A DNA stretch of 64,000 bases from a virus (lineage: Duplodnaviria > Caudoviricetes). Where the stretch lies: IMG/VR virus record IMGVR_UViG_3300035661_000004. One strand, 5' to 3'. This document shows positions 2,716-24,493 of the stretch, piece after piece. Positions within the stretch are counted from its first letter, which is position 1. Every line of letters starts with the position of its first letter. The notes under the pieces are model-generated. The model searched no databases. It had not been told where the DNA came from and was given only the letters and a program-made list of their open reading frames with translations. The position numbers and the translations under genes were made by a program.

Positions 2716-2721
2716 TCTTAT

Positions 2722-5437: not shown

Positions 5438-5712
5438 GGCCCGCTTCGCAAGGCTTTCGCCAGCTTATCGCATGCGGCGTTATACTGGCCGAGCTCCGTT
5501 TGCCAGTAGTCCTGGTCGCTCCACTGCCCGGTGTAGCTCGGCACCTTGGCTTGAGCTTGCCGGAGCTGGATGCGAGCCTGCAGCATCTCGCAGACTGCGT
5601 CCGCGATGGCGTGAGCCCCAGGCTCTTGAGGCTCGGGAGCCTTGCCGCCGAACGCGACGTATGGCGGGCTCGAAAGGTCGGCGAAGATCTCGGTGAACAG
5701 ATTGTCTCTCAT
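5434..5712 (-). CDS. Hypothetical protein
   Basis: 92-aa ORF; the A of its ATG is the terminal A of the tRNA-Leu CCA. Confidence 0.6.
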   Translation of the reverse strand: MRDNLFTEIFADLSSPPYVAFGGKAPEPQEPGAHAIADAVCEMLQARIQLRQAQAKVPSYTGQWSDQDYWQTELGQYNAACDKLAKALRSGP

Positions 5713-5798
5713 GGTGCGCCCGGCCGGACTCGAACCGGCACGCCACTGCTGGCGTCAGGACCTAAACCTGGTGTGTCTACCAATTTCACCACGGGCGC
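5712..5798 (-). tRNA. tRNA-Leu (UAG)
   Basis: GCGCCCG/CGGGCGC acceptor, loop TT-TAG-GT, long variable arm, TTCGAGT T-loop, A73, encoded CCA. Confidence 0.95.
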
Positions 5799-7033: not shown

Positions 7034-9115
7034 TCAGAATGCGACTCGGATGACGCGGTTGAGAGCGCCCTTGACACGCACGACCACGGTGTCGCGTACC
7101 GTGGACGAGAAGCCCAGGCCCGACAGCTGTTCGGACGCCTTGGCGACCTTCAGCTTGGAGCCGACCATCTCCAGGACCTTGCGGTGCTTGTTCAGCTCCG
7201 GGGTCAGGAACTCGTTGTAGAAGCCACGGGCGGTGCCGTCATTGGCACAGCCTTGCAGCATGAAGAAGTAGTGCTTGTTGCCGGCGCCCTTCTGGTCATC
7301 CCAGTGGTTCGGTGACAGCATCACGACGTTGACTTGCTGGAAGGTCTGGGTCTTCAGGCCCCAGACATCCTTCGTCGTGCTCGTGCTCGGCAGCGACTCG
7401 ATGATCGTGAAGCCGTCCTTCTTCGAGTACTTGATCTTCGCCACGGTCAGGTTCGACCGAGACGGGATCGCGCGATCGTAGTAGATCGTCGTGGTCACGC
7501 CGTCGAACTCGATGTCGACGCCGAAGCCCTTGCCGTCCGTCGACCGCTTGACGAAGTTGTTGATGAACAGCTCGTAGACGCCTTCTTTCATGCGGTTGCG
7601 GTTGGCGTAGTAGATGTTCTCGCACGGCTCGTTCTTCATGCCGTCAACGCCGTTGGCGTCCAGGTCCAGCTCGCCACCGCACGGAGACAGGCTACGGCCA
7701 CCCTTCAGCCGGTAGCTGCCGTAGTAGATCTCGGAGCCGCCCGGCTCGACCATGTGGAAATCCAGGTCATCGGTGTAGTCCCAGGCCAGGCGGCAGCACA
7801 GCTCGCCGACCACTTGGCCGCCGGCGCTCTTAACACGTTCCTTGATCGAGTCCGTCACGTCGCCGGTGTAGGACCAGCTGAAGGAGTTGTCCCAAGCAAA
7901 CAGCTTGCCAGCCGTCGGGTCGGTTGGAGCGATCAGGCTGACCAGGCGGTTGGTGTGCTTGTTCTCCAACAGCAGCTCGATCGACTTGGCCGTCGGCAGG
8001 ATGTCCTTCAGGAACTTCTCGATGCCCACCTCCTCGATCTTGTCGAAGGACCTGGTCGAGACCTTGGCGTCACCCACCAGGTCATCGAACACGTCGCCGG
8101 TCATGGTCGCCTTGGCGTCGCGGTTGGCGAACAACACGTTGTTGACCGTGATGTCCGTCAGGACTGCGAAGCGGCGTTCCAGGGCCGAGACCAAGCCCAG
8201 CTTCTGCAGCTCGCCCTTGGCCTTCTCGATCATGCCCTTGGTAACCAGCGCCGTCGGACGCTTGTAGTTCTGCGGGGCGGTCTTGGACTCGTAGATCTTG
8301 ACGGCGTCATCCAGCTCCTTCATGGCCAAGTCCTCGACCAACGTGCCGATGACCGAAGTGCGGAAGCCGCACAGTGCGCCTGCTGCCTTGAACTTGGTCC
8401 AGGCGAAGAGCGCTTGTCGGTCAGCCGACAGCTTGTCGAAAGCGGCCTTCAGCTCACGGAAGGAGGTGACGGCGCCCTTGAACTGGTCACCGCGGTAGAT
8501 CGAGCCCTGCGTGATCAGCTCCAGCACCGCGTCGATGTTCTCGATGCTCAGGTCGGTCAGGCTGCGGTGCAGGGAGTCACGGGCCGAGCGGTCTTCGCTC
8601 AGCTTGGTCGCGACATGGTCCTTGCCCACCACGTAAGCGCGCGGGATGTTGACGAAGAAGTGATCCCAGGCTTGCTGACCGCCGTTGACCAGCTGCTCGA
8701 AGCTGCGGTCGGTGCCGGCCTTGTCCAGGTAGTGCAGGAACACGTCGCCGATGGCGTGAGCCTTGACGGTCGCGGACAGCGCGTTGGCAACAGTTTGGTA
8801 AGCCGGCTCCTTGGCGGCGATGTCGATGTCCCAGATGGACGTGAGCGAGCCGTCGGCGTTGATCGTCACGACGTCGCCAACGTCACGGATGAAGTGGCGG
8901 CAGCAGGTACAGTCGTGCTCCGTGCGCTCACGGTACATCGGGTTGGTGCCTTCCGGGAAGGCGCCCAAGTAGGTGTTCCAGAGCAGGTCGCTCTTGGCAC
9001 CGGTCTCATCCTTCGGGATGCTGACGCGGAACAGAGCGGCGTTGTTGGCCGTCATCTCCGCGAAGCGCTTCTGGATCGCCTTCTTGAAGACGTTGAAGTT
9101 CAGCACGTGGGTCAT
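7034..9115 (-). CDS. Large phage protein with C-terminal YfaP/DUF2135-like domain
   Basis: 693 aa; LAWDYTDDLDFHMVEPGG...GELDLDAN...ENIYY resembles the YfaP-type signature; promoter TTTACA-N17-TACTAT upstream. Confidence 0.7.
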   Translation of the reverse strand: MTHVLNFNVFKKAIQKRFAEMTANNAALFRVSIPKDETGAKSDLLWNTYLGAFPEGTNPMYRERTEHDCTCCRHFIRDVGDVVTINADGSLTSIWDIDIAAKEPAYQTVANALSATVKAHAIGDVFLHYLDKAGTDRSFEQLVNGGQQAWDHFFVNIPRAYVVGKDHVATKLSEDRSARDSLHRSLTDLSIENIDAVLELITQGSIYRGDQFKGAVTSFRELKAAFDKLSADRQALFAWTKFKAAGALCGFRTSVIGTLVEDLAMKELDDAVKIYESKTAPQNYKRPTALVTKGMIEKAKGELQKLGLVSALERRFAVLTDITVNNVLFANRDAKATMTGDVFDDLVGDAKVSTRSFDKIEEVGIEKFLKDILPTAKSIELLLENKHTNRLVSLIAPTDPTAGKLFAWDNSFSWSYTGDVTDSIKERVKSAGGQVVGELCCRLAWDYTDDLDFHMVEPGGSEIYYGSYRLKGGRSLSPCGGELDLDANGVDGMKNEPCENIYYANRNRMKEGVYELFINNFVKRSTDGKGFGVDIEFDGVTTTIYYDRAIPSRSNLTVAKIKYSKKDGFTIIESLPSTSTTKDVWGLKTQTFQQVNVVMLSPNHWDDQKGAGNKHYFFMLQGCANDGTARGFYNEFLTPELNKHRKVLEMVGSKLKVAKASEQLSGLGFSSTVRDTVVVRVKGALNRVIRVAF

Positions 9116-11701: not shown

Positions 11702-11797
11702 TGGCGGAAGGCTGAGTACTCGAAACCCATCCCGCTTGTTGAGAGCGAGACCCTCGGATTAGCAATCCGGTCCAGGCACCTACCTGGTTAACCTTCC
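11702..11797 (-). tRNA. tRNA-Ser (GCU)
   Basis: GGAAGG acceptor start, loop TT-GCT-AA, long variable arm, G73, CCA. Confidence 0.92.
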
Positions 11798-11814
11798 ATG
11801 AATTCGCGCTTTAC

Positions 11815-12213
11815 TCAGTCGTGATGATCTTCGAGCGGGTCGTCGTAGAGCCGTACATGTAAGCGTGCGTCAGGCCGTTTGTACAGCACCTCCTCGGACA
11901 CAGCGCAACCTGTAGCCTCCTTCAGGTGGTTGAGCGTGTCGGGAGCGTCACGCAGCGTGATAAGCAAGCTTTGACCAGACGCGCGAAGCACCGTGCCGTA
12001 CTCTGCATTGATTAGCCTTGCGGCGGTTTCGGGCGAGTACTTTGCGTCAAGCCCAACACGGACAATGTACCGCTTTTCCTTGCCAAGTGCTTCTGCAGCT
12101 GGCTCTTGTTCTTCAGCCTTCTTGCCAAAGATTCGGTCCCACCCGCTACGGTAGGAGTCGGTAGTTGACTTGGACTTGAGGGCATCGCCGGTAATGTCGT
12201 TGTGTGCTATCAT
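11815..12213 (-). CDS. Hypothetical protein embedded in the tRNA array
   Basis: 132 aa, N-terminus NDITGD..KSK..YRSGWDRIFG; the A of its ATG is the terminal A of the tRNA-Ser(GGA) CCA. Confidence 0.7.
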   Translation of the reverse strand: MIAHNDITGDALKSKSTTDSYRSGWDRIFGKKAEEQEPAAEALGKEKRYIVRVGLDAKYSPETAARLINAEYGTVLRASGQSLLITLRDAPDTLNHLKEATGCAVSEEVLYKRPDARLHVRLYDDPLEDHHD

Positions 12214-12307
12214 GGCGGATAGTTGAGTACTCGAAACCCAATCCCTCGTTACCGAAGAATCCCACTGCTTTCCAAGCAGGTCCGGTCACCTAACCGGTTA
12301 ACTATCC
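12213..12307 (-). tRNA. tRNA-Ser (GGA)
   Basis: GGATAGT/ACTATCC acceptor, loop TT-GGA-AA, long variable arm, G73, CCA. Confidence 0.92.
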
Positions 12308-12310
12308 ATG

Positions 12311-12396
12311 TGTCCCGTACCGGACTCGAACCGGTACGCCTCTTCCGAGGCGGCAGAGTTTAAGCCTGCTGCGTCTACCAATTTCGCCAACGGGGC
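12311..12396 (-). tRNA. tRNA-Leu (UAA)
   Basis: Loop CT-TAA-AC, Leu-type D-loop TTGGTAGAC, long variable arm, A73; one acceptor mismatch; CCA not encoded. Confidence 0.9.
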
Positions 12397-12487
12397 GGTG
12401 GAAGACGGAGGACTTGAACCCCAAGCCACATCTCTGTGACTCCCACTGCTTTCGAAGCAGGTCCGGACCCTGTCCGGTTCATCTTCC
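12397..12487 (-). tRNA. tRNA-Ser (CGA)
   Basis: GGAAGAT/GTCTTCC acceptor, loop TT-CGA-AA, long variable arm; discriminator A rather than G; abuts the next tRNA. Confidence 0.9.
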
Positions 12488-12490
12488 GTA

Positions 12491-12635
12491 AGGTGACAGT
12501 AGGACTCGAACCTACGATGCATAGTCTGTCATGCTAGCTTATGCCATCGGTTCCTGCCATGGGCATGCGAGGGTGATAAGGCCTCTCCGTCTTGACTTGA
12601 CCGCGACGCTGTCTACCAATTTTCAGCATGTCACC
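12491..12635 (-). ncRNA. Oversized (145-nt) tRNA-like RNA with the anticodon arm replaced by a structured insert
   Basis: Perfect 7-bp GGTGACA/TGTCACC acceptor, Leu-like D-arm CTG-AAAATTGGTAGA-CAG, T-arm GTAGG-TTCGAGT-CCTAC, about 90 nt between D- and T-arms. Confidence 0.75.
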
Positions 12636-12636
12636 T

Positions 12637-12719
12637 TGGTGCCCTCGGCGGGACTCGAACCCGCAAAAATCTAGCATCTCAAGCTAGTAGCTGTACCAAT
12701 TTGCATTTATCACGAGGGC
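12637..12719 (-). tRNA. tRNA-Leu (GAG), short variable loop and irregular enlarged D-arm
   Basis: GCCCTCG/CGAGGGC acceptor, CTAGC-TTGAGAT-GCTAG anticodon arm, ATTTTT variable region, A73, CCA. Confidence 0.85.
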
Positions 12720-12767
12720 GTGATGTGTTTGCATTATATTACCTTTTCGGCCAAGGTGATATAAAGC

Positions 12768-12860
12768 GGCGGATGACAGAGGACTCGAACCCCAGCCCGG
12801 GTACTAGCCGAACCGTACCGCTTTCAAGGCGGCCCCGGACGCCCGCCCGGTTTATCATCC
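12768..12860 (-). tRNA. tRNA-Ser (UGA)
   Basis: GGATGAT/GTCATCC acceptor, GCCGC-CTTGAAA-GCGGT anticodon arm, long variable arm, G73. Confidence 0.92.
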
Positions 12861-13415
12861 GATGATGAGGTGCTGCAGCTTAGCTACAGCTTCGTTCCAA
12901 GAGGCCCCAATGACGCTGTCAGGAACCCTTACGCTAATGCACCACCGAGGCTCAGCCTCCACGTCAATGGAGTGCGGAACGTCCGTGCGCACGAGCGTAA
13001 GCTCTTGCTTGACCTCATGGCTGTCAATAAGCGTGAGCTCCGTCTTAGGCCATGAGAGGTAGTCTGTCTCGACCATGGTCAGGCTTGCGGCACCTGCTTT
13101 GCCCTCATGCCCTGTGTACCACAGCATCTTGCTCCCCTTGCCGCCTAGGACCCAGTTAAAAGCAAATGCTTTCGGCCTAGTCGGCGTGCTCATGTCGATG
13201 TGCGCGATGGGGCTTCGAGCCCAAGGCTGCTTGTAGAACAAGATAGCCTGGCAGACCGGCAGGCCGATCAAGGTCATCCAGCGTAACCAATCATCGGTGA
13301 AGATGTCGGTCAGCGTAGGGTCATAGATAGCCCAGGGCTTGGGGTCAGCGGGGAGCGTCCAACCAGGTCTTAGGGCGCCCGCTGTCGGGATAGTCAGTTC
13401 ATGCCAGCACTTCAT
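12855..13415 (-). CDS. Putative 2OG-Fe(II)/cupin-like protein, late
   Basis: 186 aa from MKCWHE; AHID...NWV...PHS...RWCISVR; TAAATA at 13421-13426; stop codon lies inside the 5' end of tRNA-Ser(UGA). Confidence 0.6.
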   Translation of the reverse strand: MKCWHELTIPTAGALRPGWTLPADPKPWAIYDPTLTDIFTDDWLRWMTLIGLPVCQAILFYKQPWARSPIAHIDMSTPTRPKAFAFNWVLGGKGSKMLWYTGHEGKAGAASLTMVETDYLSWPKTELTLIDSHEVKQELTLVRTDVPHSIDVEAEPRWCISVRVPDSVIGASWNEAVAKLQHLIIG

Positions 13416-13423
13416 GCTGGTAT

Positions 13424-13645
13424 TTAGTCGCCACCGTGCCTCGCGATCCGGACGATGTCCTGGCTGGTCACGATCCGGCACTTCGCTTCGATCTCAGCGA
13501 TGCGGCGCTTGGGAATGTCGTAGTGGTCCTTGTGGAACCAGCAGCGAGCGATGTTGAGCTCCTGCGCCATCAGGTGCAGGTTCTCGATTGAGTAGGGCAA
13601 GCAGATGAGGTGCCTTGCCTTATCGGTCAGGTACTCGAGCTTCAC
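13424..13645 (-). CDS. DUF4031-like small protein
   Basis: HL...ENLHLMAQELNIARCWFHKDHYDIP resembles the DUF4031 pattern. Confidence 0.6.
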   Translation of the reverse strand: MKLEYLTDKARHLICLPYSIENLHLMAQELNIARCWFHKDHYDIPKRRIAEIEAKCRIVTSQDIVRIARHGGD

Positions 13646-13932
13646 CGCTTGAAGTTTCGGATGGCGTCGGACAGCGGCCCGAGCTCTGCGATCTCTTGGT
13701 CCTTGCGGTGGAAGGTGCAGCTAGGTTGTGAGCGCTTCCGTCCCTTGACAACCGGGTACAGCACGACAACCGGCTGATCGCACCCTGTGCGGTGGCACTT
13801 GTAGGGTGTCAGTTCGGTGCTTGAGCCATGACCGATGCGAGCCTTGCTCTTGTGCGCAAAGATGCCGCAGCTTGGGCAGCGGTAGACGGCGCGGACGCCT
13901 TCGACCGGCTTGTAGTTGTGAACGCAGCTCAT
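13642..13932 (-). CDS. Cys/His-rich putative zinc-binding protein
   Basis: CxH, CPSC, CHRTGC, CxxH motifs. Confidence 0.6.
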   Translation of the reverse strand: MSCVHNYKPVEGVRAVYRCPSCGIFAHKSKARIGHGSSTELTPYKCHRTGCDQPVVVLYPVVKGRKRSQPSCTFHRKDQEIAELGPLSDAIRNFKR

Positions 13933-14186
13933 TGAATCACCTTGTCGGCGCCGGCTTCCGTGATGGTCGTAATGTAACCCATGCGGGCGATGCGCTCAGC
14001 GGCTTCGATGTAACTGGTGTAGTGGTAAGCGCAACCAATGAGTGGGCTTGCAAAGCAGATGAAGCCTCGCGCAGCAGAGTCCTCGCAGCCTGGGTAGGTC
14101 AGCGGTTGGCCGCGATGAATTCCTGCGACCGCGTTGAACACCTCGACGCCGTCTTTTGTGACTACAATTTGTGTCGGGAAGGTCAT
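13929..14186 (-). CDS. Hypothetical protein
   Basis: 85 aa, AGGAG RBS, promoter at 14223-14251. Confidence 0.65.
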   Translation of the reverse strand: MTFPTQIVVTKDGVEVFNAVAGIHRGQPLTYPGCEDSAARGFICFASPLIGCAYHYTSYIEAAERIARMGYITTITEAGADKVIQ

Positions 14187-14222
14187 GCTGTGCTCCTAAG
14201 TATCGGTTGGCAGAATGGAATG

Positions 14223-14251
14223 ATTGTACATCATCACGATCCGCTTGTAAA
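14223..14251 (-). promoter_or_regulatory. Sigma70-like promoter internal to the tRNA array
   Basis: TTTACA-N17-TACAAT starting 4 nt after the CCA of tRNA-Leu(CAA). Confidence 0.75.
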
Positions 14252-14255
14252 CACT

Positions 14256-14340
14256 TGGTGCGCCCGGTCGGACTCGAACCGACACGCCTTGCGGCAACAG
14301 ATTTTGAGTCTGCCGCGTCTACCCATTCCGCCACGGGCGC
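14256..14340 (-). tRNA. tRNA-Leu (CAA)
   Basis: GCGCCCG/CGGGCGC acceptor, loop CT-CAA-AA, long variable arm, A73, CCA. Confidence 0.95.
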
Positions 14341-14344
14341 GTGA

Positions 14345-14854
14345 CTAAGTACGTTTCTTAAAACCCCACGTTGGAGTTTGTGTGTGACAGTTGGGACAGA
14401 TCATGCGTAAGTTTTCACGCCGATTGTCCTTGTTATCACCATTAGCGTGATCAAGCTGAAACACTAAGGGCTTGCCATTCCAAGTTTGTCCAAGGCCGCA
14501 TTCTTTACAAATGCCGCCTTGCTCTAACAACACGCGCTCATGGAAGCAGCTCTTAGGAACTTCGTGCCATGGTGCATCTGTTAAGTGGTGCTGCCGTTTG
14601 TCTTTTGCAATACGTGCGGCCATTAAACCGCCCTTGATTCTATCTTCGCGCATCGGCCCTGCAGTAGGTCTTCCTGCTTGATAGCCAGCTCTCAATGTAG
14701 CACTGCTTCTAGCTCGATTTGCTAAGCATTGATTAGCGCTCTTGCAGCAAATGTACTTTCCACTTGCACTAATGAATAGGGCAGTTTGCCCACAGTCGTA
14801 AGCACACATGTGTGCCGTTGAAATTGGTGTAGCTGGTTTAGGTCCGCGTTTCAT
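14345..14854 (-). CDS. Free-standing HNH homing endonuclease
   Basis: C-terminal CKEC...LDHANGDNKDNRRENLRMICPNCH; AT-rich; TAAATA at 14861-14866. Confidence 0.88.
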   Translation of the reverse strand: MKRGPKPATPISTAHMCAYDCGQTALFISASGKYICCKSANQCLANRARSSATLRAGYQAGRPTAGPMREDRIKGGLMAARIAKDKRQHHLTDAPWHEVPKSCFHERVLLEQGGICKECGLGQTWNGKPLVFQLDHANGDNKDNRRENLRMICPNCHTQTPTWGFKKRT

Positions 14855-14866
14855 GCTGCCTATTTA

Positions 14867-14951
14867 GGTGCACACGGGGGAGACTTGAACTCCCAATCCC
14901 GAAGGCCACAGTGTCTGAGGCTGTGATGTATACCAATTCCATCACGTGTGC
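14867..14951 (-). tRNA. tRNA-Leu (CAG), copy 1
   Basis: GCACACG/CGTGTGC acceptor with one extra C in a C-run, loop CT-CAG-AC, variable arm with TTCG loop. Confidence 0.85.
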
Positions 14952-14954
14952 ATA

Positions 14955-15033
14955 TGGTGCCCTAGGCGGGACTCGAACCCGCAGAATTCCGCTTCTGAGG
15001 CGGACATGTTTACCAAGATTTCATCACCAGGGC
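14955..15033 (-). tRNA. tRNA-Leu (CAG), copy 2, short 5-nt variable loop
   Basis: GCCCTGG/CTAGGGC acceptor, TCCGC-CTCAGAA-GCGGA, variable region ATTCT, A73, CCA. Confidence 0.9.
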
Positions 15034-15037
15034 GGTG

Positions 15038-15120
15038 GGTGGAGGTAGAAGGAATCGAACCTTCATGACCGAAGTACCGGGGTTACAGTCCGGGCGCTCT
15101 CCATAGGCGTCTATACCTCC
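15038..15120 (-). tRNA. tRNA-Tyr (GUA), copy 1
   Basis: GGAGGTA/TACCTCC acceptor, loop CT-GTA-AC, long variable arm, A73. Confidence 0.88.
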
Positions 15121-15132
15121 AAGGGTCTTACG

Positions 15133-15215
15133 GGTGGATCAGGATAGGAGTCGAACCTACGTAGCTTTCGCGGGAGCCCAAACTGGCTCCTGGGCTCGTC
15201 TCACCCAGCTGATCC
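15133..15215 (-). ncRNA. tRNA-like RNA with a non-canonical anticodon loop
   Basis: GGATCAG/CTGATCC acceptor, GGG/CCC D-stem, GGAGCC-AGTTTG-GGCTCC arm (6- or 8-nt loop), GC-GAAA-GC variable hairpin, GTAGG-TTCGACT-CCTAT T-arm. Confidence 0.7.
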
Positions 15216-15223
15216 ATTACTTT

Positions 15224-15308
15224 TGGTGGGGCCGCAAGGAATCGAACCTTGTTGGTCAGGGACACCGGGTTTACAGGCCGGGCAGAAGCCATTACTGTCT
15301 ACGACCCC
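15224..15308 (-). tRNA. tRNA-Tyr (GUA), copy 2; first tRNA after the attenuator
   Basis: GGGGTCG/CGGCCCC acceptor, loop CT-GTA-AA, long variable arm, A73, CCA. Confidence 0.88.
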
Positions 15309-15348
15309 AAAAGTAAAGCGCGAATTGTTAAAGAGCGTCACACCAATG

Positions 15349-15385
15349 AGAAAAAGCCTCGGACCTTTCGGTCGGAGGCTTTTGC
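15349..15385 (-). terminator. Conditional intrinsic terminator (attenuator 3:4 hairpin)
   Basis: AAAAGCCTC-C-GACC-GAAA-GGTC-C-GAGGCTTTT then T, about 40 nt upstream of the first tRNA. Confidence 0.9.
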
Positions 15386-15410
15386 TAGGTGTGAAGGTAG
15401 AAGTTCTGTC

Positions 15411-15485
15411 TTACCCGATCATGCAAAAGCCTCCATCGCTATAAAGCGATGAGGAGCTCAAATATGATAGGGAGGTGTTCTTCAT
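15411..15485 (-). CDS. Attenuator leader peptide MKNTSLSYLSSSSLYSDGGFCMIG
   Basis: Translated by hand; ATG 9 nt after the -10 hexamer (leaderless); codons 5-16 are all Ser/Leu/Tyr; overlaps hairpin segments 1 and 2. Confidence 0.85.
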   Translation of the reverse strand: MKNTSLSYLSSSSLYSDGGFCMIG

Positions 15486-15494
15486 GATGGTAGA

Positions 15495-15523
15495 ATTGTA
15501 TTTACAGTCGAAGTCGTTGTAAA
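15495..15523 (-). promoter_or_regulatory. Sigma70-like promoter of the attenuated tRNA operon
   Basis: TTTACA-N17-TACAAT. Confidence 0.85.
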
Positions 15524-17846: not shown

Positions 17847-19019
17847 TTAGGCGCGGCCGCGGCGCTTGGCCACGGCGCGGACCATTGCAGAGCGGACCGA
17901 CTTGGTCTCGACCGACAGCTGTTTCAGGTCGCTCTTCGGCACCGGCTTGCCAGTGATCGAGGAGATGTAGGTGCCGTCTTGCTCGAAGGCGATCGTGTAC
18001 TTCTCAGCCGGCAGCGGCCCCTTGGAGTCCTGGAAGCGGACCCAGGCCTTGCCGTTCTTTGCCAGGCCGTAGCCTTCGGCCAGGACCTTCAGCGAAGGCT
18101 TCAGGTTGCCGATGGAGACGGTCTCCTTCGGCTGCGCCACGTTCTTGCGGGCCTTCTGCTTGGCGCCTTCCGGACCTTGCTCCACGAACTTGACTTGCGG
18201 TGCGGCGTCCTTCATGTTCTCGTCGAAGATGAAGGGCTGCAGGAACAGCTCGTCCTTGGCCGCATCGCCCAGAGCTTCGCCGACGACGAAGTACTCGGAG
18301 GCACGACCCTTGGTGTTCTGGTAGTCCGTCGGGATGGCGAACACGAAGCGCGGGTTGACCTTGACGATGACGGTGCGTGAGCTGACATCGCTGCGGTACT
18401 GGCTCAGGTAGGAGCGCGAGCAGAAGTGCAGGCCCACGGAGCAGGTCTGGTGACGGTTGACGTCGACCTTGTCCGGGTCCATGGCGACCAGCTTGCCGGG
18501 GCTGTTGTCCAGCGTGCCGGTGTAGATGTCCTTGAAGTTTCGCGCGACCTTCTTGTAGGCCAGGAAGCAACCGTCCTTCGTGATGGGCATCTTGCCGCTC
18601 ATCAGGAACTGGTACAGCTCCTCGCGGAGGTCCTTCTTCTTGTTACGGCTGATGTTCTGCAGCAGCAGGACCAGCGGCTGAATGGACTCGGCCGTGCTGC
18701 CGTTGCGGACAGAGGCGATGATGCGGTCCACGAGTGGACCGGCGATCTTCTCGGGGCCCTTCGGGCCTTCCCAGTAGAGCTCACCATCAACGAAGCGCAC
18801 GCGAGCGTTAGCGTTGGTGATCGCTTCGGCGACCGTACGCTTGACATTGGCGAGAGCCAGGACTCGGTCGTACTTGCCGGCGCGCAGCTCCTGCTCGATC
18901 AGGTCGAAGTTCGGGTTGGTCGTGTCAACGACCGCCGGCACTCCGTTGACGATCAGGGTCAGACCGACTGCGTTCTTGGTCCAGAAGACCTGCGGCGCGC
19001 TCTTTGCATCGATTGCCAT
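17847..19019 (-). CDS. rIIB: RIIB-like protein
   Basis: ITKDGCFLAYKKV...DNSPG...D.NRHQTCSVGLH...VKVNP..V..IP.DY.N.KGR motifs; directly follows rIIA. Confidence 0.9.
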   Translation of the reverse strand: MAIDAKSAPQVFWTKNAVGLTLIVNGVPAVVDTTNPNFDLIEQELRAGKYDRVLALANVKRTVAEAITNANARVRFVDGELYWEGPKGPEKIAGPLVDRIIASVRNGSTAESIQPLVLLLQNISRNKKKDLREELYQFLMSGKMPITKDGCFLAYKKVARNFKDIYTGTLDNSPGKLVAMDPDKVDVNRHQTCSVGLHFCSRSYLSQYRSDVSSRTVIVKVNPRFVFAIPTDYQNTKGRASEYFVVGEALGDAAKDELFLQPFIFDENMKDAAPQVKFVEQGPEGAKQKARKNVAQPKETVSIGNLKPSLKVLAEGYGLAKNGKAWVRFQDSKGPLPAEKYTIAFEQDGTYISSITGKPVPKSDLKQLSVETKSVRSAMVRAVAKRRGRA

Positions 19020-19090: not shown

Positions 19091-21691
19091 TTAAGCGGTC
19101 AGCAAAGCTTCGGCCCAGTAAGCAGCTTCGGTGTCGCGTCGTGCTTGGGCTTCAGCTTCAGCGATCGTGCGGTCAACACCCACCAAGTAGGCAACAACTT
19201 GGTGGAAGAAGGGCTCCTTGCGATCGTAGAGCTCATCGCCCAGGTGCTCGAGCAGCGGGTAAGCCTTGAGCACGTCGGCAAGGCGCACCTTGCCTTCTAG
19301 CAGGGTTCGCATGTCATCGAACTGACGCTCGATCGTGTGGACCACGTACACGAGCGCCGAGCGCTTCGTGTTGCCGATCAGCGCGCTCTTGACCACGTTT
19401 GTGATGCCCCGCAGCTTAACAAAGACGTTGTTCGGGCCGAGCGGCCCCATCGCCTTGACAAACTTGGATTCATTGATGAAGGCCTTAGCGATCCGCGCGC
19501 CGTCCGACCGGTCAAGGGCGTTTAACCGGCTTTGCATTGCCTTGAGCAAGCCGGCGTCGGCTGTTACCATGTCCTTGATCGGCTTGAGCAGCTCAGCCAT
19601 GTCGACAAGCTCTACGCCTTTGTTCTTGCATTCCTCTTGCTGCCGGTCAGACAGCAAGCCGATCATCAATGGCTTGCCGTCTGTCATGAAAGGCTCGAGC
19701 AAGCCGAGCGTGAACAAGGCGCCGACCAGCTCGTTCTCGATCAACTGCTTGTGCACGCCCAGCGGTTGACCGTGCACGGTGGGCACGTACAGCATTGGCC
19801 GCTTCAGCTCGTGACGTGCATAGTCACGGCTGTGGGTGGGCTTGTAGAAGCTCAGGTTGATCAGGCCATCCAGCTTGTAGAGCTCGCGCTGAATGTGCTT
19901 GCCGGCTTGGTCAACGGGGAAGGTGTACATGTCGAAGCGCTGCTCGATCGTGCCCTTCTGCGCAGGCTTCTTTGCTGCTACGAAGTCACGCTTCGGTGGC
20001 TCAGGGAACTTGAACTTCGGCAGCGTGCTCAGCAGCACGACCTTAGCGCCGTCCGCGATCGTGCCCTTGACATGCTCGCTGAACTTGACCAGAGTGTCCG
20101 CTGCGCTCAAGCCGCCGCCGAAGCCGTCGATGAAGTACAGAGCGGCGCTCTGGTAGGCTCGGATCAGGTCAGGGTCGTTGAACTGTTCAGCGTAGAAGCG
20201 GATGCCTTCCGAGCCACGCTCGCCTAGGTCATTGATGATGAAGGCGATGTTGCCTTCGCGCGTGTACAGGTCAAAGTTGGTGTTTGTGACCTTGTGGCCT
20301 TCATGCAGGTAGTTCGCCGCCCGCCGCTTCATGTTGACGTTCAGCAACGGCTTCGGCTCGAGCGCCGGCGAGAACCAGTCGATCGTGTTGTTCTGGGCAC
20401 CGACCGTGCGCTTGGTCTTCGGGTCAACCGTGCCAGGATGCTCCACCATCACGAAGGAGATCGCCGTCAGGCCGAAGCGCTGCGGCCCCTTGACGTATAT
20501 CTTGTAGTCCGCGGAGATCAACTGGACATTGAATAGCAGGTGCTCTCCCTTGCTGACATGAATGCGGTCGGTGCGCAGCTTGCTCGGCACGACCTCGCGG
20601 CCGTCGGCCAGCTTGAAGGTCTCGCCCATGATGATTTGAGCGACAAACGGGAAGCTTTCGTACAGCAGGCGGTACTTCTCGTTGAACTTCTTGAGGAAAG
20701 CGTTCGGCGAGTCCATGTTGTGCAGGTCCGACTTGGACTTTTCAACCAGCTCGCCAGCGATCCGGTCAAATGCAACGCTCAAGACCTTGCACGTCGGCTC
20801 GTCATAGCTGAGCTCCTCGCGCGAAGCCTGGAAGCTCAAGGCGCCAATGGGGAAGGTGATCGTGATCGGCTGGTTCAGGATGGCGCGAGCGCGATCTGAA
20901 ACACGGGGCAAGGACTGGGCCGTGATGCGGTAGGGCACGCCGCCCATGACGGCGACCGGGCCGGCGTTGTCATGGCTGTACTTGCGGAGGTTCCAGTCGC
21001 TGCCGGTAGAGATCGGGTTGCCGCGGGCCTCTTCGATGGCCTTGACCACCGAGGTATCGCCTTGGAAGGTGGGCAGGTCAGCGGGGTTCCAGTAGCTGTA
21101 GAAGCGGATGATCCGTTGGCGGAAGGCTTTGATGTCATCGATGCGAACCGCGAGCTCGACACGGACGCCGTTAGGCAAGTCAGTAGGAGCTTGGAAGACC
21201 AGCTTGCCGTCCGGCACGCCGCCTTCGTTGATGAAGCAGAAGTACTTGTACTCGACGCCGTTGTATCGGTTGATGACGAGGAACGAGCTCTTCGTGTAGG
21301 CGAACGGGCTCTTCGAGCCGAGGCCGAGAGCGCCGATGGCGTCATTCGTGTGGGTCTTGGTCGATGCGCCGTAGGTCCAGAAGATGTCGACGATGTGGTC
21401 GGGGTCGATGCCCAGGCCGACGTCCTCGACCCAGAAGTTGTTGTCGAGCGTGGTCGGCACGTTGACCATGAAGCCGAACTTGCGAGCAGGATCCGGGTCG
21501 GCGATGGCAGCCATGACCGCGGAGTCACGAGCGTTGCAGCTCAGCTCGCGGATGACGGCCATAATCTTGTCGGTGTAGATGCCGTCCGACAGGATCGCGA
21601 ACATCTTCGGGTTGGACTTCAGCTTGAAGGTCAAGCGGTCATCCTGGGGGAGGTTGCCTTCGAACTTGATCTCTTCCTCGAGCAGCTTCAT
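19091..21691 (-). CDS. rIIA: RIIA-like protein (N-terminal GHKL/HSP90-type ATPase)
   Basis: LSDGIYTDKIMAVIRELSCNARDS, VED.GLG, GALGLGSKSPFAY. Confidence 0.92.
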   Translation of the reverse strand: MKLLEEEIKFEGNLPQDDRLTFKLKSNPKMFAILSDGIYTDKIMAVIRELSCNARDSAVMAAIADPDPARKFGFMVNVPTTLDNNFWVEDVGLGIDPDHIVDIFWTYGASTKTHTNDAIGALGLGSKSPFAYTKSSFLVINRYNGVEYKYFCFINEGGVPDGKLVFQAPTDLPNGVRVELAVRIDDIKAFRQRIIRFYSYWNPADLPTFQGDTSVVKAIEEARGNPISTGSDWNLRKYSHDNAGPVAVMGGVPYRITAQSLPRVSDRARAILNQPITITFPIGALSFQASREELSYDEPTCKVLSVAFDRIAGELVEKSKSDLHNMDSPNAFLKKFNEKYRLLYESFPFVAQIIMGETFKLADGREVVPSKLRTDRIHVSKGEHLLFNVQLISADYKIYVKGPQRFGLTAISFVMVEHPGTVDPKTKRTVGAQNNTIDWFSPALEPKPLLNVNMKRRAANYLHEGHKVTNTNFDLYTREGNIAFIINDLGERGSEGIRFYAEQFNDPDLIRAYQSAALYFIDGFGGGLSAADTLVKFSEHVKGTIADGAKVVLLSTLPKFKFPEPPKRDFVAAKKPAQKGTIEQRFDMYTFPVDQAGKHIQRELYKLDGLINLSFYKPTHSRDYARHELKRPMLYVPTVHGQPLGVHKQLIENELVGALFTLGLLEPFMTDGKPLMIGLLSDRQQEECKNKGVELVDMAELLKPIKDMVTADAGLLKAMQSRLNALDRSDGARIAKAFINESKFVKAMGPLGPNNVFVKLRGITNVVKSALIGNTKRSALVYVVHTIERQFDDMRTLLEGKVRLADVLKAYPLLEHLGDELYDRKEPFFHQVVAYLVGVDRTIAEAEAQARRDTEAAYWAEALLTA

Positions 21692-22915: not shown

Positions 22916-24493
22916 TCAGAATGTAAACACGCCCCAGCCGATATCGATGCTGTTCTCAACCCTTGCGCCGTTGAGGGCCATGATGACATGCGGCACGCTG
23001 GTTTCACCGTCGCCGTCATCGATGTACATCGTCAGCTTGACCGTGCCGCCCCAAAGGTAGGAGGCATGCGCGATCACGTCATTGGCTTGCTCTTCGTTGA
23101 GGGGGCGGTTGTTGACAACGAAGTGCTTCAACCTTAGCACGTCATCGTCGTTTCCGATGACCTGGATGTCAGGCTTGTAGCGCGAGATGTGGTACTGTGC
23201 GGCCAGCTTAGCGCGCAGTTCACGGAAGGACTCAGGACGAGCCACCTCGGTGATTAGGTACTCTTCGTCATAGAGTCCGTGGTCACGGATCGCAAACATC
23301 TCGAGCTTCTTCGCTACCGACGGCGCCAAGAACTGCAGGATGAAGGTCTCATCGGTATAGTTCATCATGGCTTCTTGCAAGACATCCTGCCACGGTTGCC
23401 CCTTCAAGTGGCCGTGGTACGGCTCGTCATCGGGGTCCTTGCAGCCATCCTCGCAGGCAGCCTTGAGGGACATGAAGATCTCAAAGCCGAGCTTGTACGG
23501 GTTGAAGGCGGCTTGCGCACGCTGCGCGATGACGCCCGAGTGCATTCGGAAGAACTCATGCATCGAACCTTCGTCGATTAGGCCCTTGTCATACAGCCTG
23601 TTGAGGATGTAGTAGTGAGTGAAGGTAGCGTAGCCCTCATTCAGCACCTTGGTCTTGCGTTGTGGGTCAAAGTACTGAGCGATCATCCGGTTGATGCGGA
23701 TGAGCTCCTTCTTCCACGCTGGGATCTTGCCGTGCTTCTCGATGAAGTAGAGGAGGTTCTCTTGCGGCTCTGCGAGCAAGCCTTCTTCGTCATCCTCGGC
23801 AGGCGGTGCTTGGTCAGCCTTTGCCTTGTCGACCAAGCCTTTGCCGACCTTCTGCCACACAGCGTCATAGTCATACAGCTGCTGAGCAAAGCGCTCGATG
23901 GCCTTCTTCTCCTCTTGCTCAGAGTTCAGAGCGCGGTTCCGCTTAGCGCTGTCTGTGCCGTACAGGCTCAGTGCATGGCACGCGTCAAGCACCGCTTCGA
24001 CTTCGTCAACGCCGTAGCGCTCTTCGCACATCAAGATGTAACGGCGAGCGAAGCTCAGGTAGCTGACGATGCCCGCCGCGTCCGTGTAGTTCTTGAACAT
24101 GAAGTTGTTCTTGAAGACAGCGGAGTGGCCGATCGATGCGTGCGCGATGACCAACAGTTGGACCAACGCGTTGTTCTCCTCCATCAGGTAGGCGATGCAG
24201 GGATTCGAGTTGATGACGATCTCGTACGCCAGGCCCATGAGGCCCTTCTTGTAGTCTGCCTCCGACTTGACCAGCTCCTTGCCGTATGACCAGTGCGAGT
24301 ACCAGACCGGCAAGCCGCTTGAGGTATAAGCTTCGAGCATCTGTGCGGCCGAGACCACTTCAATCTGAGGCTCGTAGTAGGTCTGGCGCATGTCCTCTTG
24401 CGCGATGACCTTGCACTCCTCCCAGCAGCGTCGGAGGAGCTCTTCATTCCAGTCGGCGCCCGACGTGAACAGGAGCTTGCTATCTTCAGACAT
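22916..24493 (-). CDS. ycgB: SpoVR/YcgB family protein
   Basis: GLPVWYSHWSYGK, GLAYEIVINSNPCIAYLM.EN, HASIGHS.VFKNN, TKVLNEGYATFTH. Confidence 0.92.
   Translation of the reverse strand: MSEDSKLLFTSGADWNEELLRRCWEECKVIAQEDMRQTYYEPQIEVVSAAQMLEAYTSSGLPVWYSHWSYGKELVKSEADYKKGLMGLAYEIVINSNPCIAYLMEENNALVQLLVIAHASIGHSAVFKNNFMFKNYTDAAGIVSYLSFARRYILMCEERYGVDEVEAVLDACHALSLYGTDSAKRNRALNSEQEEKKAIERFAQQLYDYDAVWQKVGKGLVDKAKADQAPPAEDDEEGLLAEPQENLLYFIEKHGKIPAWKKELIRINRMIAQYFDPQRKTKVLNEGYATFTHYYILNRLYDKGLIDEGSMHEFFRMHSGVIAQRAQAAFNPYKLGFEIFMSLKAACEDGCKDPDDEPYHGHLKGQPWQDVLQEAMMNYTDETFILQFLAPSVAKKLEMFAIRDHGLYDEEYLITEVARPESFRELRAKLAAQYHISRYKPDIQVIGNDDDVLRLKHFVVNNRPLNEEQANDVIAHASYLWGGTVKLTMYIDDGDGETSVPHVIMALNGARVENSIDIGWGVFTF

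Follow-up and report, generated by a model that had tools for sequence, protein, structure and literature searches.

The window, a 64,000-nt stretch of DNA from a large uncultured phage with a G+C content of ~57% in this stretch, was searched for tRNA genes with ARAGORN and Rfam, supplemented by reading cloverleaves by hand. Twelve tRNA genes were found on the minus strand at 11702-15308 and 5712-5798, namely Tyr-GUA (two copies), Leu-CAG (two copies), Leu-CAA, Leu-GAG, Leu-UAA, Leu-UAG, Ser-UGA, Ser-CGA, Ser-GGA and Ser-GCU. Beside these, two tRNA-like oddities are present (15133-15215 and 12491-12635). The features of the array are as follows.

15224-15308, minus strand: tRNA-Tyr(GUA) with long variable arm, A73 and encoded CCA (ARAGORN default; Rfam tRNA, 31.3 bits).
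15133-15215, minus strand: tRNA-like gene, anticodon loop of 6 or 8 nt (AGTTTG) without U33 (relaxed ARAGORN only, as tRNA-?(gttt)).
15036-15121, minus strand: second copy of tRNA-Tyr(GUA), 71% identical to the first (ARAGORN default).
14955-15033, minus strand: short tRNA-Leu(CAG) with Leu-type D loop, A73 and a 5-nt variable loop, i.e. class I shape (ARAGORN; Rfam tRNA, 59.5 bits).
14867-14952, minus strand: tRNA-Leu(CAG) with long variable arm (ARAGORN; Rfam, 35.8 bits).
14345-14854, minus strand: HNH homing-endonuclease-like ORF of 169 aa within the array (PHROG phrog_10822, E=8.8e-22; Pfam HNH matches weak).
14256-14340, minus strand: tRNA-Leu(CAA) (ARAGORN; Rfam, 60 bits).
14223-14251, minus strand: internal promoter TTTACA-N17-TACAAT, from which the distal half of the array can also be transcribed (consensus scan).
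12855-14186, minus strand: four small ORFs between the tRNA blocks, of 85 aa, 96 aa, 73 aa (DUF4031) and 140-208 aa (ORF list, L001 gene calls, Pfam, PHROGs).
12768-12860, minus strand: tRNA-Ser(UGA), acceptor stem 8 bp, T stem 4 bp, D stem 6 bp, G73 (ARAGORN -ps90; Rfam tRNA-Sec model, 43.3 bits).
12637-12719, minus strand: tRNA-Leu(GAG) with short variable loop and enlarged D arm (cloverleaf and loop TTGAGAT read by hand).
12491-12635, minus strand: tRNA-like element of 145 nt, in which acceptor stem, Leu-type D arm and T arm surround ~90 nt replacing the anticodon arm (sequence and fold).
12397-12487, minus strand: tRNA-Ser(CGA), 8/4 body, A73 (ARAGORN -ps90; Rfam tRNA-Sec model, 37.1 bits; stem analysis).
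12310-12396, minus strand: tRNA-Leu(UAA) without encoded CCA (ARAGORN; Rfam, 46.8 bits).
12213-12307, minus strand: tRNA-Ser(GGA), D stem 6 bp, G73, CCA, drawable as 8/4 or 7/5 (ARAGORN -ps85; stem analysis).
11702-11797, minus strand: tRNA-Ser(GCU), D stem 6 bp, G73, CCA (ARAGORN default; stem analysis).
5712-5798, minus strand: tRNA-Leu(UAG), 5.9 kb downstream of the main array (ARAGORN; Rfam, 51.7 bits).

Using default parameters, ARAGORN called eight tRNAs, each for Ser, Leu or Tyr and throughout on the minus strand (Leu-UAG, Ser-GCU, Leu-UAA, Leu-CAA, two Leu-CAG and two Tyr-GUA). The relaxed setting -ps90 added Ser-CGA, Ser-UGA, the odd gene at 15133-15215 and the gene at 12637-12719, the latter with a shifted anticodon loop; Ser-GGA was called at -ps85. 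The 145-nt element was called a tRNA by none of the tools used. Nine of the window's tRNA genes were backed by Rfam as tRNA or tRNA-Sec-like matches, and Rfam reported no tRNA in 20001-64000. On the plus strand, -ps90 gave two weak calls (57729 and 59132), which were rejected as false because they lack Rfam support and lie inside coding ORFs. A tRNA for any amino acid other than Ser, Leu or Tyr was found in the 64-kb window by neither ARAGORN nor Rfam, confirming what the preliminary description had observed. Its claim of a full isoacceptor set holds as well, since the ten anticodons (Leu CAG, GAG, UAG, CAA and UAA; Ser UGA, CGA, GGA and GCU; Tyr GUA) cover 14 of the 14 Ser/Leu/Tyr codons.

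The designation of the array as class II is correct in terms of amino acid, but the shape does not fit in two Leu genes (14955-15033 and 12637-12719), whose variable loops comprise 5-6 nt. Stem analysis assigned a Sec-like 8/4 body with a 6-bp D stem to all four Ser genes of the array, and Ser-CGA has A73 where G73 is expected. These unusual tRNA bodies are presumably charged. According to Pfam and PHROGs, two HNH genes lie in the array or adjoin it. Acb1, located just left of the window, is an example of the counter-defence-type genes that the phage carries.

Upstream of the first tRNA, a leader with the following features was identified.

15495-15523, minus strand: operon promoter TTTACA-N17-TACAAT with an embedded TAAATA late-type motif (consensus scan).
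15411-15485, minus strand: leader ORF of 24 codons, MKNTSLSYLSSSSLYSDGGFCMIG (translation).
15438-15473, minus strand: 12 consecutive Ser/Leu/Tyr codons (TCC CTA TCA TAT TTG AGC TCC TCA TCG CTT TAT AGC).
15374-15434, minus strand: antiterminator GGAGGCTTTTGC (15434-15423, codons 18-21) paired with GCAAAAGCCTCC (15385-15374), -32.7 kcal/mol in ViennaRNA.
15351-15379, minus strand: intrinsic terminator GCCTCCGACC-GAAA-GGTCCGAGGC followed by TTTTT, 42 nt upstream of the first tRNA.

The TTTACA/TACAAT hexamer pair occurs six times on the minus strand of the window and also in the class I cluster. The leader ATG is situated 9 nt past the -10 hexamer, hence the leader mRNA is probably leaderless; since no Shine-Dalgarno sequence was found on this ORF, its translation would have to be leaderless or nearly so. 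The leader amino acids mirror the downstream tRNAs (MKNTSLSYLSSSSLYS...), and the 12-codon run calls for eight of the ten anticodon species encoded downstream. CTA, the cognate codon of the distant Leu(UAG), is present in the leader ORF. Among all six frames of the whole window, this is the only Ser/Leu/Tyr run of at least eight, and a run length of 12 was reached in none of 200 shuffles. The 1.85 Mb of fetched related loci contain a single other mixed run of at least 12 in which all three residues are represented, and it lies just ahead of the Ser/Leu/Tyr cluster of the related phage G002.

Folding of the full leader at minimum free energy yields the terminator (-48.4 kcal/mol overall, hairpin -21), the 5' arm of which shares sequence with the antiterminator. 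With codons 1-12 and a further 13 nt masked in ViennaRNA, the antiterminator helix was kept; it was gone once the ribosome front was set at codon 16. Clean switching in minimum-free-energy folds of full transcripts is confined to this window's leader, while in the remaining leaders, described below, the antiterminator appears only in folds of truncated (co-transcriptional) RNA.

The phage was extended beyond the window by walking overlapping contigs, whose overlaps are 99.7-100% identical. Two further clusters, 71-90 kb away at window-equivalent positions 86.8-97.8 kb and 103.3-105.6 kb, contain ~32 short-arm tRNA genes for the 17 other amino acids, so that the whole phage has ~45 tRNA genes for all 20 amino acids. 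Each cluster has its own promoters, short leader ORF and terminator; the class I leaders are MFTQVHHQFWQENQPIIRKNDEPKIN... and MTFVTPVTACTAATAGGSTV, both with GACCGAAAGGTC-type terminators. Sigma-70-like promoters are located downstream of the class I terminators, so attenuation there could only add to a basal level. The tRNA content of a class I cluster varies between strains. All Leu and Tyr genes and most Ser genes are kept in one operon, and a single canonical Ser-UGA with a long arm is found away from the array, among class I tRNAs. The sorting by structural class proposed in the preliminary description is therefore real in that class I tRNAs form separate clusters, and inexact with regard to this Ser-UGA and the two Leu genes without a long arm. 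Separate regulation was borne out by the clusters' own leaders, terminators and promoters, but the attenuators predicted for class I are of the same kind. A kit of class II tRNAs only does not describe a phage with this gene set.

The coupling between leader and operon content was evaluated in 10 pairs from four related phages with differing tRNA partitions. The G002 phage genome is complete at 360 kb, and its DUF8224 protein shows 52% identity; 12 Ser/Leu/Tyr genes and one Met gene are preceded there by the leader MNTFNISLLSSSLLSYSLYS..., and its class I cluster by a homologous MFT...IRKNNE... leader. G001 and G003 have other partitions, which their leaders match: in this set, MITKTTTPMTMKPTKP precedes Pro x3, Met, Thr x3 and Lys, and MIKTATHSSAHSSAASAAS precedes His, Ala x3 and Ser x4. 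G003 has Ser, Leu and Tyr in three different blocks, and in G006 they are grouped with Cys and Trp behind a leader for which no clear terminator was found. Overall, the Ser/Leu/Tyr block is present again in two relatives and split in a third. For the 10 pairs, the true pairing ranked best of 144 within-genome reassignments, and its score was reached in none of 100,000 global permutations. The leaders had initially been chosen by eye; in a re-test that selected the best upstream ORF anew for every assignment, none of 20,000 permutations reached the true pairing, which lowers that bias without removing it. The examples all belong to a single group of related phages, whose shared ancestry inflates the apparent number of independent cases. 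Nine of the 10 leaders show pairing between the 3' portion of the ORF and the terminator's 5' arm; this pairing is kept on an early stall and lost on read-on. Leader G003_b2 has a weak terminator. No leader/operon coupling was found in XacN1, used as a negative control, and a further control of 29 blocks in other loci gave a median enrichment of 0.04.

The array is probably best read as a demand-sensing supply operon gated by an attenuator, one of at least three in a nearly complete set of ~45 tRNA genes, each with its own ribosome-mediated transcription attenuator. RNA polymerase would begin at TTTACA-N17-TACAAT and a ribosome would load on the nearly leaderless 24-codon ORF. When Ser/Leu/Tyr codons are decoded fast, the ribosome would cover codons 18-21 and melt the GGAGGCUUUUGC:GCAAAAGCCUCC antiterminator, whereupon the GCCUCCGACC-GAAA-GGUCCGAGGC-UUUUU terminator could form and transcription would end 42 nt short of the first tRNA. 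Should charged tRNA for Ser, Leu or Tyr be scarce, owing possibly to heavy demand, host shut-off or tRNA-damaging enzymes of the host, the ribosome would stall within the 12-codon run and the antiterminator would stay. The polymerase would then read Tyr, Tyr, Leu, Leu, Leu and subsequently the Ser/Leu block, with no terminator between, until the new tRNAs ease the stall in a negative feedback. Consequently, the phage would probably make Ser/Leu/Tyr tRNAs only when their decoding falls short. The internal promoter at 14251-14223 could allow the distal Ser/Leu block to be expressed independently of the attenuator. The sorting itself is organised by regulation; any reason for placing Ser, Leu and Tyr together is inferred.

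The preliminary description had explained the sorting by a defence recognising the variable arm. In an extended form of this view, the array would be an inducible replacement kit against a host defence recognising or cutting long-variable-arm tRNAs, the attenuator an alarm sensing their loss, and the Leu genes without long arm and the 8/4 Ser genes escape variants. Such a role is possible and, on the present evidence, rather unlikely. All three class II families of bacteria occur together here, in G002 (plus one Met) and in G006 (plus Cys and Trp), and by our own arithmetic a random 3/8 split of a G001-like block of 11 families isolates exactly Ser, Leu and Tyr about once in 165. Duplicated Tyr and Leu-CAG genes together with HNH endonucleases are reminiscent of how SegB amplifies tRNA-Tyr against Septu (PMC13096335); in addition, the tRNA bodies have been remodelled, and counter-defence-type genes such as Acb1 occur in the phage. 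[quoted passage not shown] The characterised bacterial Schlafen cleaves Lys, Met and other tRNAs (PMC13056530), and no bacterial effector acting on all three families is known to us or was found in the literature searched. Moreover, the class I operons of the same phage are organised alike, and leader-peptide attenuators of the same type gate them, hence the gating is a general design and not special to class II. A canonical long-arm Ser-UGA resides inside a class I operon, and relatives use other partitions with matching leaders, up to the three blocks of G003. Short-arm Leu tRNAs are also present in mixed arrays of unrelated phages and 8/4 Ser tRNAs were described in phage tRNA clusters before (PMC5389517), thus neither remodelling is specific to a sorted array. 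No evidence obtained here links the array to a variable-arm nuclease, and the earlier interpretation is only partly supported.

Quite improbable is a purely historical origin, by which class II genes spread through local tandem duplication and anticodon change, aided by homing endonucleases, and remained side by side, so that the grouping by class has no role. Paralogy is evident (short Leu-CAG and Leu-GAG 78% identical, Ser-GGA and Ser-GCU 76%, the Tyr pair 71%), and no array tRNA is closer to a G002 gene than to its most similar neighbour in the array. In G003, genes for the same amino acid follow one another (Pro x3, Thr x3, Leu x5, Ala x3, Ser x4, Arg x5), a pattern that duplication predicts; the HNH genes and the strain-variable class I content fit too. 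However, the Leu and Ser genes of the array are interleaved instead of forming family runs, Tyr, Leu and Ser are not interconvertible by a single anticodon change, and the grouping is seen again in phages whose conserved protein is only ~47-52% identical. In every partition the leader follows the composition of the operon, which shows selection on the choice of tRNAs within an operon. A historical by-product is compatible with the attenuator and denies only a reason for the class grouping. Compensation of codon usage, reviewed as the classical explanation for phage tRNAs (PMC10264068), would have the array feed Ser/Leu/Tyr codons used more by the phage than by its host; the window's G+C content and the fact that Leu and Ser are the families richest in codons favour it. 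The preliminary description had already disputed this account, with good reason: every Ser/Leu/Tyr isoacceptor is present, including two Leu-CAG copies reading the common CUG codon, and tRNAs for the other 17 amino acids are also carried, hence the phage has a full set and not a rare-codon top-up. As compensation predicts neither family sorting nor a leader sampling eight anticodon species, it was considered very improbable.

One further RNA gene was detected in the window.

2412-2741, minus strand: permuted tmRNA with the tag ANDSVYAMAA (ARAGORN; Rfam RF04321, 96.7 bits).

It is part of the same translation-support region and lies outside the Ser/Leu/Tyr operon.

The tRNA array at 11702-15308, together with the outlying gene at 5712-5798, is best accounted for as one operon of a phage tRNA set which would be regulated operon by operon. 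The regulating event would be the stalling of a ribosome on a leader ORF written in codons read by the operon's own tRNAs, so that tRNA genes would be under attenuation of the trp/his/thr type. ARAGORN, Rfam and inspection by hand agreed on 12 tRNA genes, all located on the minus strand and each carrying a Ser, Leu or Tyr anticodon (12/12), which are the amino acids of the long-variable-arm (class II) tRNAs in bacteria; thus, the tRNA list of the preliminary description was correct. The ten anticodon species cover every Ser, Leu and Tyr codon. Neighboring genes inside the tRNA blocks are spaced by 0-11 nt, apart from one gap of 48 nt. Other tRNAs were found in the window (whole 64 kb) neither by ARAGORN nor by an E-value Rfam search.

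Features around the class II operon, from high to low positions (tRNA genes concordant between ARAGORN, Rfam and inspection by hand)
19091-21691, rIIA
17847-19019, rIIB
15523-15495, minus strand, promoter TTTACA-N17-TACAAT
15485-15411, minus strand, leader ORF MKNTSLSYLSSSSLYSDGGFCMIG, 24 codons
15434-15423, minus strand, predicted antiterminator strand GGAGGCTTTTGC, with a perfect complement GCAAAAGCCTCC at 15385-15374
15379-15351, minus strand, predicted terminator GCCTCCGACC-GAAA-GGTCCGAGGC plus TTTTT, ending 42 nt before the first tRNA-Tyr
15308-15224, minus strand, tRNA-Tyr(GUA), first in transcription order
15215-15133, minus strand, tRNA-like oddity between the two tRNA-Tyr genes
15121-15036, minus strand, tRNA-Tyr(GUA)
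15033-14955, minus strand, tRNA-Leu(CAG)
14952-14867, minus strand, tRNA-Leu(CAG), followed by an HNH ORF
14340-14256, minus strand, tRNA-Leu(CAA), followed by four small ORFs
12860-12768, minus strand, tRNA-Ser(UGA)
12719-12637, minus strand, tRNA-Leu(GAG)
12635-12491, minus strand, tRNA-like element of 145 nt
12487-12397, minus strand, tRNA-Ser(CGA)
12396-12310, minus strand, tRNA-Leu(UAA)
12307-12213, minus strand, tRNA-Ser(GGA), followed by an ORF of 132 aa
11797-11702, minus strand, tRNA-Ser(GCU)
5798-5712, minus strand, tRNA-Leu(UAG), 5.9 kb beyond tRNA-Ser(GCU)

The short ORF between promoter and tRNA genes contains 12 consecutive Ser/Leu/Tyr codons. No other run of ≥ 8 such codons occurs in any frame of the window, and a run of 12 was matched in 0 of 200 shuffles. 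The codons of the run call for the anticodons GGA, UAG, UGA, GUA, CAA, GCU, CGA and GAG, which are 8 of the 10 species encoded downstream. When the full leader was folded, a hairpin inside the ORF and the terminator, whose U tract consists of 5 U, were obtained. Masking of the first 12 codons, which mimics a stalled ribosome, resulted in formation of the 12-bp antiterminator. According to these computed folds, the antiterminator has an energy of -32.7 kcal/mol, is kept for a stall at codon 12 or earlier and is lost from codon 16 on, so that antiterminator and terminator would be mutually exclusive and set by the position of the ribosome. Between 15300 and 11700, no terminator-like site was detected except for a weak one within the HNH ORF; an internal promoter is located at 14251-14223. 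Downstream lie tRNAs, an HNH gene and small ORFs, none of which is known to serve biosynthesis or supply of a sensed amino acid. The leader is modeled as working like an attenuator, but on a different kind of gene.

The window (G+C content ~57%) is part of a 201,540-bp contig of an uncultured large phage, whose DNA occurs in sediment and microbial-mat metagenomes; no RNA run was listed as containing the locus. Neither megablast with the array and with 24 kb of window sequence nor a search of IMG/VR with the rIIA protein revealed a close relative among GenBank phages or in IMG/VR; the sole megablast match against phages was an 82-bp tRNA-Leu of Xanthomonas phage XacN1 with 85% identity. An exact 40-mer gave no match, and the contigs of the window itself are absent from the viral and metagenome collections scanned. 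Besides rIIA and rIIB, the window encodes helicases, HNH endonucleases and, at 22916-30047 (minus strand), the stress-kinase trio PrkA / DUF444 (YeaH) / SpoVR as well as NADAR, NUDIX and cpYpsA-domain proteins. A permuted (two-piece) tmRNA with the tag ANDSVYAMAA is found at 2412-2741 (minus strand), and an Acb1-like (anti-CBASS) protein is encoded just left of the window (contig L003, 16674-17252).

To the right, the genome was followed via overlapping metagenome contigs with identical proteins (7 protein look-ups), the overlaps being 99.7-100% identical in DNA; positions beyond the window are given as window equivalents. No tRNA is encoded in the 10 kb left of the window or between the window and 86 kb. 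At 86.8-97.8 kb, 22 short-arm (class I) genes follow on the same strand as the array in the order Pro, Ile, Asn, Lys, Glu, an odd 80-nt UGA gene, Trp, Val, His, Asp, Phe, Gln, Asp, Lys, Trp, Thr, Arg, Met, Val, Met, Ile and Arg. A third cluster at 103.3-105.6 kb comprises Gly, Ala, Gly, Lys, Thr, a canonical 88-nt Ser-UGA, Cys, Met, Pro and Thr, and an Arg-CCU gene is present at 108.5 kb. Together with the array, these clusters give a total of ~45 tRNA genes for all 20 amino acids in the region from 10 kb left of the window to ~108.5 kb. The array accounts for all Leu and Tyr genes detected and for four of the five canonical Ser genes, and no other amino acid is represented in it. Hence, the class I tRNAs do sit in separate clusters, a point the preliminary description had proposed to check. 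Its claim of sorting by structural class held insofar as the array is free of non-Ser/Leu/Tyr genes, and failed for the canonical Ser-UGA in the third cluster and for two array Leu genes, which have short arms.

Both class I clusters have leaders of their own. The leader ORF ahead of the 22-gene cluster is MFTQVHHQFWQENQPIIRKNDEPKINALVKAEGLPA; its first 26 codons specify exactly the amino acids of the downstream tRNAs, and Ala, Gly, Cys, Ser, Leu and Tyr are absent. It is followed by a GGGGACC-GAAA-GGTCCCC hairpin. For the third cluster, the leader is MTFVTPVTACTAATAGGSTV and the hairpin GGGACC-GAAA-GGTCCC. If the transcript is folded up to the terminator loop, the 5' arm of the terminator pairs in both leaders with the ORF's 3' end or with the bases immediately following, and in the computed folds this antiterminator pairing is kept on an early ribosome stall and lost when the ribosome reads on. 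The class I clusters differ from the class II operon in having TTTACA/TACAAT promoters downstream of the terminator, directly ahead of the tRNAs.

Strain variants of the same phage from different samples (contigs L110 and L125 compared to L109 and L124) differ in the class I cluster by an extra His/Gln pair and a DUF559/endonuclease region; tRNA content thus turns over among near-identical genomes. The odd 80-nt gene (L109, 4769-4848, ~97.1 kb) combines a UGA (Ser) anticodon with a short-arm body, G33 and C73. Charging by SerRS is unlikely, and the gene may be a recoding or regulatory RNA.

For the search for related phages, the DUF8224 protein encoded at 7034-9115 (minus strand) was used as anchor, which yielded 80 IMG/VR loci; tRNAs were determined by whole-record tRNA searches and ARAGORN. 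This protein of 693 aa has > 3000 homologs (~55% identity) in phage contigs, contains many invariant Cys, His and Asp residues and often adjoins tRNA genes. In G002, a complete phage of 360 kb, a 13-gene cluster consists of 12 Ser/Leu/Tyr genes, including an ARAGORN Gln call re-read as short-arm Leu-UAA, and one Met gene, and the class I genes are > 90 kb away from it. The leader MNTFNISLLSSSLLSYSLYSELRGVGLKVDM lies directly upstream of this cluster and a terminator follows; the DNA sequence is different from that of the array leader, the architecture is the same. The class I leader of G002 (MFT...IRKNNE...) is homologous to the class I leader of the phage studied here. No leader like those of this phage was found ahead of the Ala/Pro/Arg/Gly cluster of G002. 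Pairwise identities gave no resolution of orthology between the tRNAs of the array and those of G002. The hairpin pattern of the class II leader, TCGCTYTATAGCGA-N2-6-GAGGC, was found in IMG/VR only in G002 and in one coding false positive, and in metagenome contigs only in the source contig of G002. Likewise, the class I leader pattern ATTCGAAAGAATRATGAG matched only G002.

Grouping of the tRNAs varies among the other relatives. G001 (complete, 342 kb) has its whole Ser, Leu and Tyr complement in a single mixed cluster that also contains Pro, Val, Gly, Lys, Ala, Met, Thr and Cys and is headed by the leader MSVLGYSVTSLPVSGLGCGAPAYASPLTRALG; the remaining tRNAs form a second cluster. In G003 (279 kb), the tRNAs form one cluster ordered by amino acid, in which Leu, Ser and Tyr fall into three separate blocks. 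The leaders of G003 are MITKTTTPMTMKPTKP... ahead of Pro x3, Met, Thr x3 and Lys, MIKTATHSSAHSSAASAAS... ahead of His, Ala x3 and Ser x4, and MSRTYTQFVQICNQVRVNR... ahead of Tyr, Phe, Val, Ile, Gln, Asn, Arg and Cys. G006 (IMGVR_UViG_3300009551_000002; complete, 119 kb; locus L143, 24.9-29.5 kb) has 23 class I genes, a gap, the leader MNRALSLYCLRYRYWSSTGLRLCSYSSL and then Cys, Leu, Ser, Trp, Ser, Tyr and Leu; the leader of its first block, MDAGNGSTPFVSPKTNHKVTGIRMFAEQATRPDQSSRQA, lacks exactly Leu, Tyr, Cys and Trp. Since no clear terminator was found after MNRALSLYCLRYRYWSSTGLRLCSYSSL, G006 was counted for the grouping alone.

The coupling of leaders and operons was determined for 10 leader/operon pairs from 4 phages. 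Of the amino acids served by a block, 88-100% are represented in its leader. The true pairing outscores all other 143 within-genome reassignments (best of 144), and its score was reached in 0 of 100000 global permutations. In a re-test, the best upstream ORF was chosen afresh for each assignment, in order to reduce the bias from choosing leaders by eye; the result was the same (rank 1 of 144; 0 of 20000 permutations). A stall-dependent antiterminator was obtained for 9 of the 10 leaders in folds of truncated transcripts. Over 29 blocks in other loci, the median enrichment was 0.04, with G006 and the DUF8224 phage L044 as outliers. Leader composition thus co-varies with the regulated genes across relatives, as in attenuators. 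XacN1 (56 tRNAs plus tmRNA) resembles the phage studied here in its near-complete tRNA set, the tmRNA, a large myovirus-like genome and rIIA/rIIB nearby, but its cluster mixes class I and class II genes and displays no leader/operon coupling.

With the enterobacterial leader attenuators (trp, his, leu, pheA; thr, ilv), the operon shares a short, promoter-proximal ORF in which regulatory codons follow one another, antiterminator and terminator helices that exclude each other, an intrinsic terminator plus U tract just ahead of the regulated genes and, as proposed, ribosome stalling as signal. Sensing of several amino acids by one leader is known from thrL and ilvL. In contrast to these systems, the regulated genes are tRNAs and not biosynthetic enzymes, so that the loop would close on decoding capacity itself. 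In addition, up to 8 anticodon species of three families are sampled, the mRNA is probably leaderless, and the leaders form a phage-encoded family whose composition co-varies with operon content. T-box riboswitches also sense supply or charging of specific tRNAs by a terminator/antiterminator switch on translation-supply genes. However, they bind the uncharged tRNA directly via a specifier codon, need no ribosome and control aaRS and amino-acid genes of Gram-positive bacteria; Rfam gave no T-box hit in the window. A published report of such tRNA-operon attenuators was not found in the searchable literature, and we know of no earlier case of ribosome-mediated attenuation of tRNA genes.

We consider it probable that a group of large phages regulates its tRNA supply by a family of attenuators, each written in the codons of its own tRNAs. 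Attenuation would explain the sorting of the tRNAs into units and the differences between the leaders, but not the placement of Ser, Leu and Tyr in a common unit. This grouping recurs in G002 and G006, is nested within the mixed cluster of G001 and is absent in G003; shared ancestry is a possible reason. The preliminary description had read the array as a replacement kit against a defense recognizing the variable arm. A link to effectors which target the variable arm or the class II shape is plausible: tRNA-Ser is the target of MenT3, and a preference of AbiEii for class II tRNAs has been suggested (bioRxiv 10.64898/2026.01.19.700257). The tRNA-Tyr of T5/T6 counters retron-Eco7 PtuAB and Septu, and the tRNA-Lys of T5 counters PARIS. 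As in those phages, isoacceptors of tRNAs destroyed by defenses are phage-encoded, homing endonucleases lie beside tRNA genes and copy number is increased (PMC13096335, PMC11555353). The difference is that single species were proven there by experiment, whereas the three-family operon and its putative sensor are known from sequence. The mammalian antiviral/stress nuclease SLFN11 is cited in PMC13056530 as preferring long-arm tRNAs; it is eukaryotic, and type II there comprises Leu and Ser only. A bacterial Schlafen was rejected as class II nuclease, given that the one characterized cuts Lys, Met, Ala and other tRNAs (PMC13056530). An attenuator would be a good detector of tRNA damage. The class I operons share the design of the class II operon, which counts against a defense-specific reading. 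It appears improbable that, on top of the attenuator family, Ser, Leu and Tyr are kept apart due to joint depletion by variable-arm or class II-shape effectors of the Septu/PtuAB or AbiE/MenT type, with short-arm Leu and 8/4 Ser as escape forms.

The reason why phages carry tRNA genes has been debated for 50 years, the proposals being that they compensate codon usage, replace degraded host tRNAs or allow escape from tRNA-cutting defenses. A sensor written into the genome would tell when the phage wants its tRNAs, namely on slowed decoding of exactly those codons. If operon-by-operon attenuation is true, it would, to our knowledge, be the first ribosome-mediated attenuation of tRNA genes and would naturally report the decoding capacity of several anticodon species simultaneously. 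Co-variation between leader and operon is a simple bioinformatic signature, with which more operons may be found and it may be asked which tRNAs phages must co-regulate. Should the class II grouping reflect a shared attack on long-arm tRNAs, it would point to uncharacterized bacterial effectors specific for class II.

Several tRNA bodies in the array are unusual, which is at most suggestive of a difference from host tRNAs at a site recognized by an effector. A variable arm > 10 nt with a stem-loop is present in 10 of the 12 genes, the exceptions being Leu-CAG (14955-15033) and Leu-GAG (12637-12719) with variable loops of 5-6 nt. In 11 of 12 genes, the discriminator base is the one typical of the family, namely A73 in Leu and Tyr and G73 in Ser; Ser-CGA has A73, hence G73 is found in 3 of 4 Ser genes. 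The bodies of all four Ser genes are Sec-like, their D stems being 6 bp long with loops of 3-4 nt. An 8-bp acceptor stem plus a 4-bp T stem (12-bp acceptor branch) is obligatory for Ser-UGA and Ser-CGA, whereas Ser-GGA and Ser-GCU can be drawn as either 8/4 or 7/5. Scores with the Rfam tRNA-Sec model are 37-43 bits, i.e. under the gathering score of 47. Phage tRNA clusters have previously been reported to contain tRNA-Ser of the 8/4 type with serine anticodons (Mukai et al., Nucleic Acids Res 2017, PMC5389517), and the array genes resemble these (8/4) tRNA-Ser/allo-tRNAs in the 8-bp acceptor stem, the 4-bp T stem, the long D stem with its 3-4-nt loop, the long variable arm and the mostly present G73. 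They differ in that the body is found in all four Ser isoacceptors of one operon, while a canonical bacterial-type 7/5 tRNA-Ser(UGA) is encoded in the Gly/Ala/Thr/Cys operon (L124, 5800-5887, window equivalent ~104.4 kb). Thus, two architectures with the same anticodon are under different leaders.

The short-arm Leu-CAG was tried as marker of a sorted array, but the pattern search matched three unrelated phages with mixed arrays, so that a short arm does not identify an array as sorted. These phages (L105, L106 and L107; IMG/VR 3300035633_000651, 3300037070_001864 and 3300048596_000025) have dense mixed arrays of 15-33 tRNAs, including Leu(CAG) genes of 76-77 nt and Tyr(GUA) genes of 72-80 nt without a long variable arm. 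Arm loss may be common in phage Leu and Tyr tRNAs.

In the element at 12491-12635 (minus strand), a perfect acceptor stem is combined with a D arm of the Leu type and a T arm, and ~90 nt of structured RNA replace the anticodon arm. The element is separated from its tRNA neighbors by 1-3 nt and was called a tRNA by no tool; for a group I intron it is too short. In the tRNA-like gene at 15133-15215 (minus strand), the anticodon loop has 6 or 8 nt and lacks U33, and a comparably odd 77-nt 'Tyr' call is found at the equivalent position in G002 (101533-101609). The short 5' leaders of the first tRNA (Tyr, 15309-15326) and the last tRNA (Ser-GCU, 11801-11815), both on the minus strand, contain AATTCGCGCTTTAC and its reverse complement GTAAAGCGCGAATT, a pair which brackets the whole array; processing or recombination are possible roles. 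In G001, a permuted tmRNA with the tag ANNSVYALAA (198905-199249) precedes two tRNAs of 77 nt whose UCA anticodon reads opal codons.
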